From Desulfocapsa sulfexigens DSM 10523 (GTDB lineage: Bacteria > Desulfobacterota > Desulfobulbia > Desulfobulbales > Desulfocapsaceae): DNA of 32,000 nucleotides. The notes beneath the pieces were generated by a model. That model was given only the letters and a program-made list of their open reading frames with translations, made no database searches and had not been told where the DNA came from. The translations under genes were made by a program, and so were the position numbers. Every line of letters begins with the position of its first letter. The stretch's first letter is position 1. Below are positions 3,920 to 29,762 of the stretch, in pieces. Location: contig NC_020304.1 in assembly GCF_000341395.1 (NCBI RefSeq), positions 720,001 through 752,000 of the forward strand. The letters are read 5' to 3'.

Positions 3920-5332
3920 CTATTGAAAGAGTAGCATGACATTAAGACTGGGGATATGCCACCCTGTTGACATTAAATAAATATAGATTCCAAACAGAAA
4001 AAAATACCCCACCTGAATAAAACGATACTGCCACCAGGCAATAACCCCCTCGAATTCCTCCTCATAAAACTTATCGAGTATGTACAATCCGGCAAGTTCA
4101 CTTACAAACATAATGGCAAGACCATAGGCAGGGTACACCCATTCCGGGACAGCGACTGTCAACGATTCCAATGCTTTTACTCCGAATTGCCTTCCAAAGG
4201 TCGGGAGAAAATCCGTAAAATTTCTGACCGTAAAGTTCAGTCTGCTTACCAATTCACCTCCAAAGGCAAGGGGCAGCAGAATTGGTACCATGGGAGAAAA
4301 ACGTCCCATTATTTCATCATTAAACACCCCGAACATGAGGTCACCATAGATGATAACAACATAAAGAATACTGAATCCGAGAAATAGTGGAACTGCGTAC
4401 AACCCCATCTGACAAACCCAACCATTCATGCAGGCTGATTGGATATTTTCCATTAAATTAAAAATATTCTGATCCAGCAAACGGGCAAGCTGAGATCCCA
4501 TAAGAAAAGGGATCATCAGGGTACAGCTTATAAGTCTTCCTTTTCGTATGATAAGTTCGGACAGTGGATGACGTATATTCAATTGCGGGGAGTTATGGTC
4601 ACAGAGGTGCATACAACGTCCACAGACAAGACATTCCAAATTATTAGTCACTTTATACGCGCCCAAAGAAACCGGGCAGCCAGGTTCCATCTCTGTTCCC
4701 CTGTTACAGGCAAATGTTGTACATTGTCTGCATGCACTGTGATCTGGCCTGAATTCAATCAACGAAATTGACGCCCCTATCCCCATTAACCGTCCCAGCG
4801 GACAGAAATATTGGCACCAGGCCTGTTTTGAGAACAGCATTGCACAGAAGGTTGCTCCGCCCAATATAATGAGAAGCAGCCAGGTGGTTTCTTTTGGGCT
4901 GTCCTTCATTCCAGTGGCCTCTTCCACCCAGATAATCGCCATAAAGAAACAAACTGAAATGGTGACACTGTTTTTTATCAGTATCTTTGGAACTTTTTTT
5001 TCAAGAGAAAGATGCCAGGTCTGAAGAAATTTACCGGCCACTGGAAAAGGGCAAACCCCACACCACAATCTGCCGACAAAAAAGAGGCTCAATATGACTG
5101 ATGGCCACCACACCCCCCAGCAAAGATACAGTATGATGTTGCTTCCGGGTGCTTGAGGTCCAAAAAGCCCGGAAAGAATCAAAACAAGAAAAAGTACAAC
5201 AAGGAATGTCTGCCAGATATGATGGAACCGCTGATTATAAAAGAGTCTCTGTAACCAGGGGAAAGTCTTGAAAAGATCGCATTTTTGTCCAGGGTCAGAG
5301 AACAACTTTGAGCACAAATTGAAAATATTCAA
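3920..5332 (-). CDS. NapH/MauN/CcoG-like polytopic membrane 4Fe-4S protein
   Basis: Two membrane-proximal CxxCP motifs (WCGVCPFP, WCQYFCPLG). They are followed by two ferredoxin-type Cys clusters (CRQCTTFAC..CP and CLVCGRCMHLC) and further C-terminal TM helices. The only start for the full ORF is TTG at 5332, 2 nt after the upstream stop. Confidence 0.75.
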   Translation of the reverse strand: MNIFNLCSKLFSDPGQKCDLFKTFPWLQRLFYNQRFHHIWQTFLVVLFLVLILSGLFGPQAPGSNIILYLCWGVWWPSVILSLFFVGRLWCGVCPFPVAGKFLQTWHLSLEKKVPKILIKNSVTISVCFFMAIIWVEEATGMKDSPKETTWLLLIILGGATFCAMLFSKQAWCQYFCPLGRLMGIGASISLIEFRPDHSACRQCTTFACNRGTEMEPGCPVSLGAYKVTNNLECLVCGRCMHLCDHNSPQLNIRHPLSELIIRKGRLISCTLMIPFLMGSQLARLLDQNIFNLMENIQSACMNGWVCQMGLYAVPLFLGFSILYVVIIYGDLMFGVFNDEIMGRFSPMVPILLPLAFGGELVSRLNFTVRNFTDFLPTFGRQFGVKALESLTVAVPEWVYPAYGLAIMFVSELAGLYILDKFYEEEFEGVIAWWQYRFIQVGYFFLFGIYIYLMSTGWHIPSLNVMLLFQ

Positions 5333-5334
5333 TT

Positions 5335-5937
5335 TTATTTCGCCTTACTTCTCACCGAAAGACAGCGCTTTTTAATCTGAAAACCGACTATCAAAGAAGC
5401 AATATAACTCAACAAAAAGAGCAGAGTGACAGAAACACCCTCCATACCAAATGGTTTGGAAGGAAGAAGAAAGAGATAGGCTTGTCCAGAAACTACGGGC
5501 AACACGTGTTCGTCCAGACTGCTGTTAAGCCAGGCCATAACCAGAAAAAGAGGCAAGAGATAAATCAGGACGTAGCGGAAGTAATGCTGAGCGAGATAGG
5601 TATTAAAATCTTCATCAATGGATTGATCGGCAGAGGTGTAAAGGGCATCTCTACTTCTTGGGTCCGGAATAATGGCGATGGTATCCCTTTCCGCCTTCTG
5701 GACAGTAAATTTCTCACGAAATGCTTTCTCCCTGACCTCGACTTTCAGCCACCTTCGGAGACAAAAGGCAAAGCCAACCGTGCAGATTGCAACAATAACA
5801 ACTTGCCCACTCGGAGGCAAAGAGAGAGCAGACAAACTATCCAGGAAAAAGAAATCGAAGACGTCCCTGACGCCAAGAAACAGCGGTTGCAGCATTCCAT
5901 AATAAATGAAATCAAGAATGGTGTTTACTACCTGCAT
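5335..5937 (-). CDS. Hypothetical integral membrane protein (about 3-4 TM helices with a charged helical segment after TM1)
   Basis: Hydrophobic segments VVIVAICTVGFAFCL, YVLIYLLPLFLVMAWL and VTLLFLLSYIASLIVGF. Same strand as, and 2 nt from, the downstream gene. No recognisable family. No obvious SD at the ATG. Confidence 0.5.
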   Translation of the reverse strand: MQVVNTILDFIYYGMLQPLFLGVRDVFDFFFLDSLSALSLPPSGQVVIVAICTVGFAFCLRRWLKVEVREKAFREKFTVQKAERDTIAIIPDPRSRDALYTSADQSIDEDFNTYLAQHYFRYVLIYLLPLFLVMAWLNSSLDEHVLPVVSGQAYLFLLPSKPFGMEGVSVTLLFLLSYIASLIVGFQIKKRCLSVRSKAK

Positions 5938-6070: not shown

Positions 6071-7762
6071 TTAACGCATGAACCAAAGAAGTCCGGTATA
6101 CTGCATGAAGGTTAGAACTAAGGCGCCAGCAAGCAGCCGTTTGAGCAGAATCTCTGGCATTTTTTTCTGCAGTTTCGGACCAACCACACCACCACACATG
6201 GCACCAGCTGCGATAAGGGCTGCCATGATCCAGTCAGGCTGGTAGCCCATCATGACATATTTTGCAATACCACCAACCGAGGTGGAAAAAGCTCCAGCGA
6301 GTGCAATGGGCACTGCCAGATACATTGGATATCCTACCATTGTTGTCATAAAAGGCATAAACATAAAACCACCACCTACACCAAAGGAAGAGGCTATAAT
6401 TCCCATGACAACACCACCTAACAGCATCAACAGTGGCTTGGCCAAAAAGGTTTCACCCCAAAAGCGCATCTCAAATTTAATGGGATGAAACTTATCAAAT
6501 TCAATGGAACCCAGCTGCATGGCTTTGCCGGACTCTTTGGCTTCTTTTACCGCCGCATTAAATTTCTGGACAATGGCCTTCATTGCCTTTTTCTTCTCAA
6601 TGGAACTGGGCAATGACTCAACATATAATTTAATACCTATAACCAGACAGATTAAGCCGAGATAGAATTTAAAAGCAGCAAGATTCAGATATTTTGCTGA
6701 AAGTGGGGGACCAATAAAGAAAGCACCAATCACGATACCAATGGCAAATGGAATAGCCACGGGATAGGCAAACCGTTTTTCTTTGAGATAACTGAGCAAT
6801 CCACTGATGGGAGAACAAAGAGTAAGAAACAGGTTTGTGGGCTTAATGGTATTACCGGCGTTAATACCGATGGGACCATTGGTTCCAATAGCGGTAATCT
6901 GAAATGCCGCAGTAAACAGACCACCGGCTGCTCCCATAATAACAAAAAGAACACCGATAACAAAGGCACCACCAAAAACTACCAGCGGATTCATGTAAAC
7001 ATTACCTGTCTTAAAGAAAAATCCTGATTTCTCAATACTGAATGTATCAACCTTCGTCCCGTTCACATAGACGGCCATCACTGTATCGGGATAGAGATTT
7101 TTGTAGGGAGACATGGAGACGGAAAATTTTCCGGTGGCCTTGTCAAGACTTACCGAAACGCCGGTATTCCAAACCTCAGCCACAGTAGCATAATCACCCA
7201 GAACCATCCGGGCATTCCCACCAGTACTTGGCTTTTCTTTCACGATGGTATTCATCCCAAATCTATCCTCATGGGCGTAGGTCACCATCTTCCATTGCTC
7301 TTCAGTTGTTACAGAACCCAACATAGTCCGTATGGACGGATCAATATCAGTCCATGCTTTAATCTTGTTTACCCTGACATCGTACTTGAATGGTGGAAAA
7401 GCAAATATGCCAGAAGTCTGCCCTTTCGGTGAAACTTTAGGGGTTGCCAATGCTTCGGGATTACTGGTGACAATATAATACGATGGCGGGATAGCAGTTT
7501 CACCAAAAACGTTCTTCCCATCCTTCCCCTCCATCAGACGCTTCCTTTCTTTGGGCCCCGGAGCATCCTTTGCCGAAAACAGCTTATCCGTAGCAATGAC
7601 AACAAAAAGTTCCTGACCCGGATCGATATTTCCGGTAACTCCAATGGCGTCTCCTGCCGTAACCTTTTTCGTGCTTAAGGTGCCATCAACTGCCATGGCA
7701 TTGCCACTCACAAAGGCCATACCTACGACGAGGACAACTAAAAGTAATAAAATTCGCTTCAT
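6071..7762 (-). CDS. TauE/SafE (DUF81) family anion permease with a ~240-aa N-terminal periplasmic domain
   Basis: Strong SD (AAGGAGGGAG) before the ATG. Signal peptide MKRILLLLVVLVVGMAFVSGNAMA, then a hydrophilic beta-rich domain of unknown family. Gly-rich TM repeats (IMGAAGGLFTAAF..., SSFGVGGGFMFMPFM) typical of TauE/SafE, split by a charged cytoplasmic loop. Confidence 0.7.
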   Translation of the reverse strand: MKRILLLLVVLVVGMAFVSGNAMAVDGTLSTKKVTAGDAIGVTGNIDPGQELFVVIATDKLFSAKDAPGPKERKRLMEGKDGKNVFGETAIPPSYYIVTSNPEALATPKVSPKGQTSGIFAFPPFKYDVRVNKIKAWTDIDPSIRTMLGSVTTEEQWKMVTYAHEDRFGMNTIVKEKPSTGGNARMVLGDYATVAEVWNTGVSVSLDKATGKFSVSMSPYKNLYPDTVMAVYVNGTKVDTFSIEKSGFFFKTGNVYMNPLVVFGGAFVIGVLFVIMGAAGGLFTAAFQITAIGTNGPIGINAGNTIKPTNLFLTLCSPISGLLSYLKEKRFAYPVAIPFAIGIVIGAFFIGPPLSAKYLNLAAFKFYLGLICLVIGIKLYVESLPSSIEKKKAMKAIVQKFNAAVKEAKESGKAMQLGSIEFDKFHPIKFEMRFWGETFLAKPLLMLLGGVVMGIIASSFGVGGGFMFMPFMTTMVGYPMYLAVPIALAGAFSTSVGGIAKYVMMGYQPDWIMAALIAAGAMCGGVVGPKLQKKMPEILLKRLLAGALVLTFMQYTGLLWFMR

Positions 7763-9481: not shown

Positions 9482-12331
9482 TCAGATTTTTTCAATCTTT
9501 GTCTTGATATATTTCAAAGGCGGCGTTGCCGTCCATTTACATGTTGTATTCGGCCTCAGTAACATATTGGTATTAAATCCCTTGTACTGCGGGTATTTCG
9601 GATCACCTTCAAGTCCATACTTATGACCGAATCCACCGGCGGCAGCGAGTACACCCTGACGAATTCCCCAGGTAACATTGGCAACAGCCTCCACAGAGGC
9701 CCAGGGTGAAGTGATTTTCACTGCGTCGCCATTGGCAATTCCAAGTTCCTTGGCATCGACGTAATTAATCCACACAGGATTGCTTCCGCAGGCCTTCATC
9801 AGAGAAACGTTCCAGAAGGTGGAAGTGTGTTCATGCTCAAGAACCCGGAAAAAACCAGTGATCATGGGAAACTCCTCATCAGGCTGCAATTCAGGCCAAT
9901 CTTCCCAGGGATCCTTGTAATCAGGAAGTCCATCCACTCCGTTTTCTTCTGCAAGAGGATTCATGAAATTGTACTTTCCTGTTTTAGTGTTACCAGATGA
10001 TCCGTAACCGGCAGGTGGATTCATGGAACCCCATTCCTTATATTTGTAATACTCATGCCCGTCGGTGATGTGATAACCAACCTTGCGCAGCTCTTCCAGA
10101 GTAATTGGCTGATTGGAAAGCTGGTTTTCCAGGAACTCATCCTCGTTCTTCCAGGGGAAATATTCACCGTAGCCCAGGCGTTTGGCAATTTCCTGAAAAA
10201 TGGAGACCACTGATTTTGAATCGTACATCGGTTTGATGGCCCGCTGGAAAAGCGAGATAAAGGATTCATACATCCAGTCAGCAACCACCCGACTCTGTTC
10301 AAGATAGGTGCAGTCTGGCAACACCACATCACAGAGTTCAGTTGTGTTGGACATGTAACAGTCGATGGAACATGAGAATTCCAGTTTTTCAATGGCCCGT
10401 TTGACAGATGGCTCACTTCCGCAGGACATAACAGGATTACCAAAGTAGCAGAGCATGGCTTTGAGTTTTCCTTCATCCACATCCTTTTCAAAATAGGCGG
10501 GGATCCATCCACTCCAGAGATGGCCCTTATCAAGCTTTGTTTTAGGTGCATTGTTTGGTGGTTTAGGCTGATCGTCACTCCAGGCTGAAGCCAGTTTTTT
10601 CTTACGAATAAGAGACGGCCCACCGGGTGCATCAAAGGTACCCATCAGCCCGTTCATGGCAATAAGCGCCTGGGTGGCGTGCAGGGTATTCGGTGCCTGG
10701 GTGACACCGGTCCAGCTGTTGGTTCCAACAGCCGGTGCAGCAATGGCAAACTCATGGGCCAGACGGGTAATAGTTCCCGCTGAGATACCACAGATTTCAG
10801 CAGCCCATTCAGGAGTGCGAACGATACCGTCTTCTTCACCCATAAGACGTTTTCTGAACGCCTCAAAGCCATAGGTCCAGTTTTCAACAAAGTCTTTGTT
10901 GTAAAGATCTTCTTTCACAAGTACATAGCACATTGCCATGGCCATGGCGCCATCGGTTCCCGGCTTGATGGCTATCCATTCCGAAGCAATATTTGCAGTT
11001 TCACTACGCCTTGGATCGACCACCACCAGTTTGGCACCACGCTTGACTGCCTTTTTCAAATCGGCAACCTTACGCTGTCCCGCCGAAGTGGCCAGTTCAT
11101 TGATACCAAAAAGCATGATAAATTCTGAGTTTTCGTAATCTATCCAGGGACGCTTCTCACTGAAGTTTTTCTCGTTAGCCATACGTGCCGGATTATCACA
11201 CATCTGCCTGTGAGTGACTTTGTTCGGAGTACCGTAGGCTGCCATAACGGCTTCATGGCACCAGTTATTAAAATCATTGCCACGGTGAAAACCGACTTCA
11301 GTTGGATCGATCCGTTTCAGATTTTCCACGGTGCGGTCAAGGGCTTCTTCCCAGCTGGCCTTACGGAATCTTCCATTTTCCTTGATCAGTGGACTCTTCA
11401 GTCTGTAGGCAGAATATGTATTGTGGTGTGCATTGGCGCCCTTGATGCAAAGTCTGCCCCCCCCCTTTGGATCCCCAGGAAGTCCCTTACAGCCGGTAAT
11501 GATGTTATCTTTCACCCTCACCTCCTGTCCACAGAGGCCGAGACAGATGAAACAGTGCGATTTGACACTCTTCAACTTCTCCGGTGCAACGGTACCCTCT
11601 TCAAGAGTGACATACTCATCGCCAAGCTCAAGTGCGGCTATGGCCTGACTCATATGTTCCAGGATAAAACCGTAGGATTCATCAGTGGCCTGCTGGGAGA
11701 GCATGGCAAAGCTGAACATCCGCTCGTTGAAAAGAAAACTCATGGTGATCTCAGCAAGCCCCCGATAAAACTCAGTCTTGGCCGCACTGGTAAGCACCGC
11801 TGAGAACTCTACCACCCAACTCATAAGATGATTTCGCAGGAAATCAAATTCAGGCTCCTGTTTCACTCCTTTATAGGCCGCCTGTTCGGCAAAGTGACGC
11901 ATGAATTCAAGCTCGGCTGCGATATGATCATCCAGGTCAAGAAAGTCTTTATTCTTATGCAAGCCTGCGGCATTCAGGGCTTCACGCATCTTCACAACTG
12001 GTTCCTGCATAACAAGAGGTTCCCGGGTGGAATAGCAGGACTCGTAGGGAAAGGCTGGATTGTTACCGGCATTGAGAAAGAGATCCGCATATTCATAGCG
12101 CAGTTCATTGAATACTTCTTCTGCAGATGACGATTCAAGAGTACCGCGCATACGGCCAAGGCCTGAACAGAAATCCTGAATGGTACACACTTCCTGTAAT
12201 TTCTTTATCTGGCCAAGAAAAGCTCCTCCACCCATCTTTTCAATAAGCCACAGAGGCACTTCGTCCCGATAGAGGGTGGAAAGGAACTGGTAAATTTTTG
12301 CCCTGGCCAGATTTGTCGCTTTAATATCCAT
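9482..12331 (-). CDS. Fusion of a TorD/DmsD-like redox-enzyme maturation chaperone domain and a molybdopterin (bis-MGD) oxidoreductase catalytic subunit; no Tat signal
   Basis: aa 1-215 carry TorD-family motifs (YEYADLFL, FPYESCY, DDHIAAELEFM). aa 260-295 carry the MopB N-terminal 4Fe-4S motif CFICLGLC...RLC. Typical MGD-binding blocks follow (KLVVVDPRRSETA, AIKPGTDGAMAMAM), then the C-terminal molydop-binding domain (ANGDAVKITSPWASVEAVANV). SD AAGGAGAG precedes the ATG. Confidence 0.85.
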   Translation of the reverse strand: MDIKATNLARAKIYQFLSTLYRDEVPLWLIEKMGGGAFLGQIKKLQEVCTIQDFCSGLGRMRGTLESSSAEEVFNELRYEYADLFLNAGNNPAFPYESCYSTREPLVMQEPVVKMREALNAAGLHKNKDFLDLDDHIAAELEFMRHFAEQAAYKGVKQEPEFDFLRNHLMSWVVEFSAVLTSAAKTEFYRGLAEITMSFLFNERMFSFAMLSQQATDESYGFILEHMSQAIAALELGDEYVTLEEGTVAPEKLKSVKSHCFICLGLCGQEVRVKDNIITGCKGLPGDPKGGGRLCIKGANAHHNTYSAYRLKSPLIKENGRFRKASWEEALDRTVENLKRIDPTEVGFHRGNDFNNWCHEAVMAAYGTPNKVTHRQMCDNPARMANEKNFSEKRPWIDYENSEFIMLFGINELATSAGQRKVADLKKAVKRGAKLVVVDPRRSETANIASEWIAIKPGTDGAMAMAMCYVLVKEDLYNKDFVENWTYGFEAFRKRLMGEEDGIVRTPEWAAEICGISAGTITRLAHEFAIAAPAVGTNSWTGVTQAPNTLHATQALIAMNGLMGTFDAPGGPSLIRKKKLASAWSDDQPKPPNNAPKTKLDKGHLWSGWIPAYFEKDVDEGKLKAMLCYFGNPVMSCGSEPSVKRAIEKLEFSCSIDCYMSNTTELCDVVLPDCTYLEQSRVVADWMYESFISLFQRAIKPMYDSKSVVSIFQEIAKRLGYGEYFPWKNEDEFLENQLSNQPITLEELRKVGYHITDGHEYYKYKEWGSMNPPAGYGSSGNTKTGKYNFMNPLAEENGVDGLPDYKDPWEDWPELQPDEEFPMITGFFRVLEHEHTSTFWNVSLMKACGSNPVWINYVDAKELGIANGDAVKITSPWASVEAVANVTWGIRQGVLAAAGGFGHKYGLEGDPKYPQYKGFNTNMLLRPNTTCKWTATPPLKYIKTKIEKI
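11457..11465. repeat. C9 (G9 on the coding strand) homopolymer inside the oxidoreductase gene
   Basis: Plus strand is ccccccccc. It encodes K-G-G-G (AAG GGG GGG GGC) between Cys3 and Cys4 of the FeS motif. Confidence 0.95.
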
Positions 12332-27499: not shown

Positions 27500-28000
27500 T
27501 CAACCAGCTTTGTTATCTGTTTGTTCTTCAAACCTGTTCTTTTCTACATTCTTCCTGGCATGATCCGGCATAAATATGCAGCCATTCATTGCTATATACA
27601 CACCGGGTCCAAGCGTCTGAGCCGCAGTTACAGCACACCCTATGTTGAACACTGCATCACTGTCTCGAAATTGAGCCGGATACATCGAGCCAGTCATTAC
27701 GATCGTTTTATCTGAAATACCCTTAAGGACTTTTGCAGTAGCAATCATCGTATCAGTGCCGTGGGTGATAACAATCCTTTCAAATGAAGAAGACTCTACT
27801 TTTCTTCTTATCAGCTCACGATCTTCATCGGTAAAATCAAGACTGTCTTTTTTCATTATTGATTCAACCACGTAGTCCAGAACAACATTAGCTCGCTCCA
27901 AAACACCATTCGCCTGTGGATCTCCAACCTGATACTCTGACTTCTGGTCAAAGTACACCTTGTCGATAGTGCCACCTGTTGTATAAATTATAATTTTCAT
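27500..28000 (-). CDS. Asparaginase-family protein consisting of the N-terminal catalytic domain only
   Basis: Catalytic motifs TTGGTIDK (nucleophile Thr) and ITHGTDTM. The protein is 166 aa, whereas full type I/II enzymes are about twice this length. Confidence 0.75.
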   Translation of the reverse strand: MKIIIYTTGGTIDKVYFDQKSEYQVGDPQANGVLERANVVLDYVVESIMKKDSLDFTDEDRELIRRKVESSSFERIVITHGTDTMIATAKVLKGISDKTIVMTGSMYPAQFRDSDAVFNIGCAVTAAQTLGPGVYIAMNGCIFMPDHARKNVEKNRFEEQTDNKAG

Positions 28001-29279: not shown

Positions 29280-29762
29280 ATGACTCCAGAAGATATGCGG
29301 CAAAAGGCAATGGACCTTTTCAGAAAACGGTTTCACTGAAGCCAGGCGATTCTGGCCGTGGGCCTGGAAAAAATAAACAAATACGACGAAAATGTGATTG
29401 CAGCCGTTGGTACATTTGGCGGTGGCATTGCCAGTTCCGGCTCTGTCTGCGGAACATTACTTGGTGCAGTAGCAGCAGTCTCTTCGCTTCACAGCAGAGG
29501 CAGCCTTGACGAAAAAGAGAACCCTCGAATGTGGGGTGTAAGCAATAAACTTATAAAACAATTTGATACGTTAACAGAACCCTATGGCGGACGAAATTGC
29601 CGTGATATTGCCCGGATCAACTGGTCAGACCGCGATGCTGTAAAAAACTACTACGGCAACCCGGAATCTACCAGAAAAGATTGTGTGCAACTTGTAGGTG
29701 ATCTTGCCTTTTTTCTTGGTACATTGCTGGAAAAGGAAATGGCACGATTGGAAGAAATATGA
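29280..29762 (+). CDS. C_GCAxxG_C_C family putative redox protein, probable selenoprotein (in-frame UGA at 29337-29339 read as Sec)
   Basis: The ORF track starts at GTG 29358, but the same frame is open from ATG 29280 except for one TGA. Read-through gives ...DLFRKRFH-U-SQAILAVG..., which restores the family's N-terminal xC[AS]Q[AS][IV]L motif. The remaining invariant residues are present (VCGTLLG, NCRDI, DCVQLV). The weakness is that there is no clear SD at 29280. Confidence 0.6.
29342..29367 (+). promoter_or_regulatory. SECIS-like hairpin immediately 3' of the UGA
   Basis: CCAGGC (29342-29347) pairs with GCCUGG (29362-29367). Alternatively GGCC (29354-29357) pairs with GGCC (29361-29364), giving a GUG apical loop that starts 19 nt after the UGA. 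Confidence 0.4.

Follow-up and report, generated by a model that had tools for sequence, protein, structure and literature searches.

The window, by which the whole 32-kb stretch of DNA analysed is meant, contained on its forward strand a reading frame that ran from ATG 29280 to a TGA stop and was interrupted once, by a TGA at 29337-29339 (Table 1). Frame translation showed that this was the only internal stop, and the read-through translation consisted of MTPEDMRQKAMDLFRKRFH, the UGA, and SQAILAVGLEK... downstream of it. In the CGAxxG-type motif around Cys57, Ala was replaced by Thr (VCGTLLG). The automatic ORF list gave only the part from GTG 29358 to 29762 (134 aa), and a product identical to these 134 aa was present in public collections (P0001, 100% identity). 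The sequence-only reading of this DNA had described a frame open from ATG 29280 except for TGA 29337-29339, an automatic ORF that began at GTG 29358 and lacked the N-terminal conserved Cys, an x-C-[AS]-Q context with UGA in place of Cys, and the signature residues VCGTLLG, NCRDI and DCVQLV further downstream. Translation agreed with all of this, and the Cys codons of the three motifs could be located. Of the 25 genes in the window, 15 ended with UGA as their ordinary stop, this gene among them; decoding at 29337 would therefore need a local signal and not a reassigned code.

Table 1. Features of the putative selenoprotein gene and its surroundings, in window coordinates.
Feature	Coordinates	Strand	Remarks
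CDS of predicted C-GCAxxG-C-C family selenoprotein	29280..29762	+	160 codons including putative Sec20, then TGA stop 29760-29762
In-frame UGA, probable Sec codon	29337..29339	+	Residue 20; at first conserved Cys of the family
Alternative stem CCAGGC/GCCUGG	29342..29367	+	Arms 29342-29347 and 29362-29367; closes 14-nt loop
SECIS-like hairpin	29350..29368	+	5' arm 29350-29357, apical loop GUG 29358-29360, 3' arm 29361-29368
GTG taken as start by ORF callers	29358..29360	+	Val27 codon; hairpin apical loop GUG
Cys57 codon	29448..29450	+	VCGTLLG; invariant column C57
Cys107 codon	29598..29600	+	NCRDI; invariant column C107
Cys135 codon	29682..29684	+	DCVQLV; invariant column C135
ATGA overlap	29759..29762	+	Own UGA stop and ATG of downstream macro-domain gene

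For profile scoring, the UGA was replaced by Cys in the 160-residue product. The substituted product matched the Pfam family PF09719 (C_GCAxxG_C_C) with 66.1 bits (cutoff 27), with profile position 1 at residue 18, and the 134-aa ORF matched it with 51.9 bits in an alignment that began at profile position 13. Since the match was complete from position 1 when the upstream segment was included, this segment forms part of the domain. The NCBIfam model TIGR01909, named 'C-GCAxxG-C-C family (seleno)protein', was matched with 48.8 bits (cutoff 47.4). All four conserved Cys positions of the family were found in the product, at UGA20 (Cys in homologs), C57, C107 and C135. The best-scoring NCBIfam model was that of the DVU_1555 family (NF045669; 69.2 bits over residues 8-139), and membership in this family was rejected at its cutoff of 103.

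The protein search returned 384 relatives, and the lengths of the best 120 were tallied. Eighty of these were about 134 aa long and covered about 83% of the query, while 40 had 155-192 aa and a query coverage of 90-100%. Together with P0001, the 80 short matches bear out the statement of the sequence-only reading that standard callers mis-annotate the gene. It had also proposed an alignment of the UGA with the first conserved Cys; the full-length aligned relatives read KRFH-C-SQA throughout, with Cys at the UGA column of the window. Three of the entries from MAGs that carry the NCBI name 'C-GCAxxG-C-C family protein' (P0011, P0092 and P0116) had the short form of 132-136 aa. Two ENA entries (P0002 and P0063), both on contigs shorter than 1 kb, had Trp at the UGA column (KRFH-W-SQ), which is most simply a gene-caller artefact in which TGA was read as Trp after a wrong genetic-code call on tiny contigs.

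A nucleotide scan of one genome per species gave 80 loci, from Desulfocapsa, Desulfobulbaceae, Desulfobacteraceae, Syntrophobacteraceae and Desulfarculales MAGs and from the isolate Desulfogranum mediterraneum DSM 13871. The closest locus belonged to an uncultured Desulfocapsa (90% identity). The critical codon was TGA in 58 of the 80 genomes and TGC or TGT in 22 (below, Sec forms and Cys forms), so that the two kinds of orthologue which the sequence-only reading had suggested looking for were both present. Three relatives read H-U-G-Q. A conserved leader of 19 residues was found at 80/80 loci, contrary to a pattern in which orthologues begin at the downstream GTG, which had been named as evidence against a selenoprotein; a start codon (ATG, GTG or TTG) headed the leader at every locus except L077 (ATC). 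The pN/pS of the leader was 0.22 in Sec forms and 0.30 in Cys forms, compared with 0.26-0.30 in the protein body, and its two other reading frames contained stops. Purifying selection on the leader, with the other frames stopped, indicates that the segment upstream of the UGA is translated in frame with the downstream part. In 40 of the 58 Sec forms, the first start candidate downstream of the UGA was a GTG at codon 27, and the commonest length of the short database entries was about 134 aa; the uniform truncation in databases is thus explained by this GTG being the usual first in-frame start candidate after the UGA.

Comparison of the Sec forms revealed a SECIS-like hairpin directly after the UGA. 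With the U of UGA numbered as position 1, the stem was formed by positions 14-21 and 25-32 and the loop by positions 22-24, the usual sequence being (U/C)CUGGCC-GUG-GGCCAGGA. The loop was GUG in 46/58 Sec forms, and its first base was the 19th nucleotide after the UGA (18 nt spacing). Because the hairpin overlaps the conserved peptide ILAVGQEK, nucleotide conservation alone is no proof of it, and the synonymous sites are the informative ones. Position 21, the third base of the Ala codon, was C in 54/58 Sec forms, whereas all four bases occurred among Cys forms. Position 27, the third base of the Gly codon, was C or U in 58/58 Sec forms and G or A in 16/22 Cys forms. The pair 19-27 was formed in 57/58 Sec forms (GC 39, GU 14, AU 4) and in 2/22 Cys forms; the four A-U cases were compensatory, with Thr or Ile at that residue and not Ala or Val. 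The inner four pairs were intact in 46/58 Sec forms compared with 2/22 Cys forms. When only loci with the peptide LAVG were considered, the inner pairs were intact in 38/45 Sec forms and 1/8 Cys forms, and the Gly codon was GGC or GGU in 45/45 Sec forms but GGG in 7/8 Cys forms.

Over the eight pairs, 91.3% of cells were paired in the 58 Sec forms and 68.2% in the 22 Cys forms. Sliding the structure register lowered the pairing of Sec forms to 28-69%, and the pairing of Cys forms was no better than that at a slide of +1 (67%). The mean hairpin MFE (positions 13-33) was -10.0 kcal/mol for Sec forms and -6.0 kcal/mol for Cys forms. When each Cys form was matched to its nearest Sec relative, the hairpin of the Sec partner was more stable in 21 of 22 pairs, with one tie and a mean difference of -4.4 kcal/mol; only 7 distinct Sec partners were involved, so these pairs are partly dependent and shared ancestry is only partly corrected. 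Formal covariation was weak: both partners had changed in a single pair, and the observed values were reached by 18-20 of 500 shuffles. The putative hairpin is supported by Sec-specific constraint and not by covariation. No Rfam family was matched by the window at gathering thresholds, and Rfam contains no curated bacterial SECIS model. In the bSECISearch consensus, the apical loop lies 16-37 nt from the UGA, has 3-14 nt and carries a G at one of its first two positions. With its GUG loop and its spacing of 18 nt, the inner hairpin agrees with this consensus.

The sequence-only reading had pointed to two hairpins with SECIS geometry, GGCC-GUG-GGCC, with its apical loop 19 nt after the UGA, and CCAGGC/GCCUGG. 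The former was found at 29354-29364 and is conserved by the family in Sec forms, whereas the latter was possible only in the clade with a Leu codon at position 29 of the protein. In this clade, to which the window belongs and which comprised 19/58 Sec forms, codon 29 was Leu CUG and not Gln CAG. Within the Desulfocapsa clade, the single A-to-U change from CAG to CUG broke one pair of the ancestral hairpin and also gave rise to a 6-bp stem, formed with the Ser-Gln-Ala codons, that competes with this hairpin. Because of the Leu CUG codon, the window stem contained a U·U mismatch (29353/29365) and the hairpin was weakened, to -7.3 kcal/mol. The alternative stem was the MFE structure of the window, with -11.0 kcal/mol and a pair probability of about 94%, and it excludes the conserved hairpin because the 3' arm is common to both. 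As the SECIS of the family, CCAGGC/GCCUGG was rejected, being possible in 19/58 Sec forms only and having a loop that starts 9 nt after the UGA; with its 8 nt spacing it did not fit the bSECISearch consensus.

Both hairpins were present at the coordinates given by the sequence-only reading. When 29337-29400 was folded alone, as that reading had proposed, its stability was no better than that of shuffles (MFE -11.1 kcal/mol, z = -0.45, 63/200 shuffles at least as stable). On single-sequence thermodynamics the window hairpin is within chance, and its support comes from the comparison of homologs. In the clade of the window, four-fold sites outside the hairpin were near saturation (mean entropy 1.44 bits), and position 12, just 5' of the hairpin, had 1.82 bits; positions 18, 30, 24 and 27 had 0, 0.30, 0.59 and 0.83 bits, respectively. 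Neither position 18 nor position 24 is paired in the alternative stem, so that their low entropy indicates continuing selection on the inner hairpin or on its loop. G22-U23 are unpaired in both the conserved hairpin and the alternative stem.

L024 (L024:10058-10099), from a Desulfocapsaceae MAG, was the only Cys form near the clade of the window; it kept the peptide ILTVGLEK, and its hairpin was decayed (CUCACCGUGGGACUUGAA; 4/8 pairs, -2.4 kcal/mol). These features suggest that Sec was recently replaced by Cys at this locus and that the SECIS was lost afterwards. L069 (L069:10058-10099) was a TGA-bearing Sec form nested among Cys forms, with the peptide VLLAGQEK and without the family hairpin. 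Its fold was CC.GGCC/GGCC.GG, in which the 5' arm is formed by the Ser-Gln-Ala codons, and it resembles the alternative stem of the window.

Neither the 32-kb window nor the homologous flanks, about 1.1 Mb in total, contained selA, selB, selD or tRNA-Sec. The sel genes usually lie elsewhere in the genome, so that their absence from window and flanks is uninformative. ARAGORN analysis of the window and all 80 loci gave 15 tRNAs, none of them tRNA-Sec, and Pfam annotation of the 24 other window ORFs gave no sel gene and no second selenoprotein. In a scan of the window for other TGA-split ORFs, all candidates were adjacent same-frame genes or non-coding upstream sequence; 14875-14345 was rejected as a second TGA-split gene, being an ordinary protein with its own ATG start. 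In BSepDB, a Desulfocapsaceae bacterium with 56 selenoprotein genes ranks fourth highest among bacteria (PMC13326102).

These results are best explained if 29280-29762 encodes a 160-residue C-GCAxxG-C-C protein whose UGA at 29337-29339 is, very probably, decoded as selenocysteine at the first conserved Cys. Translation would start at ATG 29280. At the UGA, the ribosome would meet the mRNA hairpin at 29350-29368, which would present a G-U-containing apical loop 19 nt past the UGA and, by the established bacterial pathway, recruit SelB·GTP·Sec-tRNASec, whereby Sec would be inserted without termination. The predicted hairpin is embedded in the codons of I-L-A-V-G-L-E, so that RNA signal and protein would use the same bases. 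We infer the dependence on SelB, the incorporation of selenium and the chemistry of the protein.

Gene callers all give the short form, as in P0001 and the 80 short database matches, and the 134-aa ORF with its 51.9 bits is still above the Pfam threshold; both facts would agree with a UGA that is a real stop, a 134-residue protein made from GTG 29358 or nearby, and 19 upstream codons that are untranslated or encode a micropeptide. Such a short protein would, however, be missing one Cys position out of four that are otherwise invariant, and its presumed start is a conserved Val codon as well as the loop of the hairpin, with 18/58 Sec forms having no start candidate at codon 27. The leader is protein-conserved in the same frame across the 58 TGA genomes (pN/pS 0.22) and contiguous with the PF09719 domain model, and the Cys homologs all start at the upstream ATG. 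A real stop is therefore very improbable. Little more can be said for read-through without Sec, either by near-cognate insertion of Trp or Cys or by local reassignment of the code, with neither SelB nor SECIS. The Trp at the UGA column in P0002 and P0063 would suit it, but these calls from contigs below 1 kb are most simply artefacts, and UGA terminates 15/25 window genes, this one included. The UGA is aligned to a conserved Cys, and constraint on the hairpin is seen in UGA forms alone, which together are a signature of Sec, and few known lineages are as rich in selenoproteins as this one; we regard this explanation as highly unlikely. TGA is one base from TGC or TGT, as a sequencing or assembly error would have it, yet the same TGA at the same codon recurred in 58 genomes that had been assembled independently, and purifying selection acts on both of its flanks; the chance of such an error, or of a pseudogene, is close to negligible.

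The preferred reading, Sec decoding at residue 20, was compared with known systems. In the SECIS of E. coli fdhF, as in the window, the hairpin lies within the CDS directly after the UGA, with a G-U apical loop about 20 nt downstream. The loop bases G23-U24 of fdhF correspond to G22-U23 in the window, where the loop of the candidate SECIS has 3 nt, begins with G and is 18 nt from the UGA. The stem, unlike that of fdhF, is short, with 8 bp in the family and, in the window, 4+3 bp on the two sides of the U·U mismatch, and the window contains a competing stem.

Sec forms of the C-GCAxxG-C-C family are already catalogued, which answers a question that the sequence-only reading had left open. A 'C-GCAxxG-C-C family protein (pfam09719)' is listed among prokaryotic selenoproteins in a 2022 review (PMC9312934), and a 2026 review gives two Sec forms of the family, 'form 1' and 'form 2' (PMC13188914). 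The family appeared in the study of Zhang and Gladyshev (2007) as a 'putative redox protein' of the Olavius algarvensis δ1 symbiont (PMC1976440), and its listing in both reviews (PMC9312934, PMC13188914) traces to that study. The window gene is likely the catalogued 'form 1', judging from the host group and the 'H-U' context, the Sec position of the catalogued forms being given by a figure alone and not in the text of the 2007 and 2008 papers. It has in common with the catalogued (seleno)proteins a domain above the cutoffs, four Cys/Sec positions, both Sec and Cys homologs and a hairpin after the UGA, and the hosts are anaerobic, selenoprotein-rich Desulfobacterota; nothing essential is different, the window protein having CGTxxG instead of CGAxxG. 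The HUGP/GUXX-star fusion selenoprotein (NF045501), which appears as NF041212 in the 2026 review (PMC13188914), aligned through its N-terminal part with residues 4-138 (40.8 bits), and the 'H-U' of its motif name matches H19-U20 of the window protein. However, the score was far under the cutoff of 325, and the window protein has only one Sec and is without the C-terminal GUXX-star module.

Family annotation of the protein is limited to 'putative redox-active protein'. The structure was modelled with AlphaFold on the Cys homolog P0027, which is 70% identical to the window product; the model was confident and all-helical (pLDDT 91.3, pTM 0.88), and Foldseek comparison with the PDB brought no meaningful match (best E = 0.43, TM <=0.34). 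The only solved sequence relative was the N-terminal non-haem domain of split-Soret cytochrome c (1H21; E = 0.009), with a GGI..CGAL..GA motif, and NCBIfam also gave a weak match to split-Soret cytochrome c. This similarity extended over about 40 residues only and was not recovered by Foldseek, and the window protein has no haem-binding part. The related split-Soret domain presumably holds a non-haem iron centre. The most likely role of Sec20 and the three conserved Cys would be either thiol/selenol redox chemistry or the binding of a metal or Fe-S centre. Should all four positions bind such a centre in the manner of split-Soret cytochrome c, the Sec would be a cluster ligand and not a catalytic redox residue. 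We consider it possible, if rather doubtful, that the window SECIS is a remodelled or two-state element or, separately, that the Sec is such a ligand. If the SECIS is indeed remodelled, the Sec-majority subfamily (58/80) together with L024 and L069 would be a natural series for the gain, reshaping and loss of coding-embedded SECIS elements.

The upstream neighbours of the gene were a divergent rubredoxin gene and TatD, and downstream followed the macro-domain gene with the ATGA overlap and then Ppx/GppA. The overlap suggests co-transcription and translational coupling with the macro-domain gene. The linkage to TatD and the macro-domain gene was conserved only within the Desulfocapsa clade, with the macro-domain pairing in about 13 loci. 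The neighbourhood was rejected as a clue to function, the arrangement being limited to this clade and indicating no pathway.

On strong comparative support, the window gene is a mis-annotated further member of a catalogued selenoprotein family, and it involves no new biological principle. The deposited product is short by 26 residues and lacks the residue that is most likely catalytic. Among the best 120 database matches, 80 have the same annotation error, which affects about two thirds of the closest relatives, NCBI-annotated MAG entries included. Correction adds one selenoprotein to a Desulfocapsaceae selenoproteome, and the 58 Sec and 22 Cys aligned sequences could be used for training predictors of bacterial SECIS elements and selenoproteins. 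Knowledge of selenocysteine biology and of the C-GCAxxG-C-C family is unchanged by the finding.

Several other features of the window were recorded. A 166-aa ORF on the reverse strand (27500-28000) had a match to the asparaginase N-terminal domain only and no counterpart in the 80 related loci. Also on the reverse strand (6071-7762 and 3920-5937), a 563-aa protein of the TauE/SafE sulfite-exporter family had an N-terminal extension of about 260 residues without assignment; for an adjoining 470-aa protein, Pfam gave no more than a weak match to Fer4_5, and for an adjoining 200-aa protein it gave none. TorD/NarJ-type chaperones and catalytic subunits are normally separate proteins. A 949-aa ORF on the reverse strand (9482-12331) had an N-terminal Nitrate_red_del (TorD/NarJ-type chaperone) domain (residues 56-176) fused to a molybdopterin oxidoreductase, the oxidoreductase part being complete (Fe4S4, Molybdopterin and Molydop_binding domains). 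A response regulator in the same frame immediately preceded this ORF, with a TGA and 15 nt between them. A rhodanese-like domain protein was encoded on the forward strand (1020-1592) by an uninterrupted ORF; rhodanese-like families include known selenoprotein forms, according to the 2026 review (PMC13188914).
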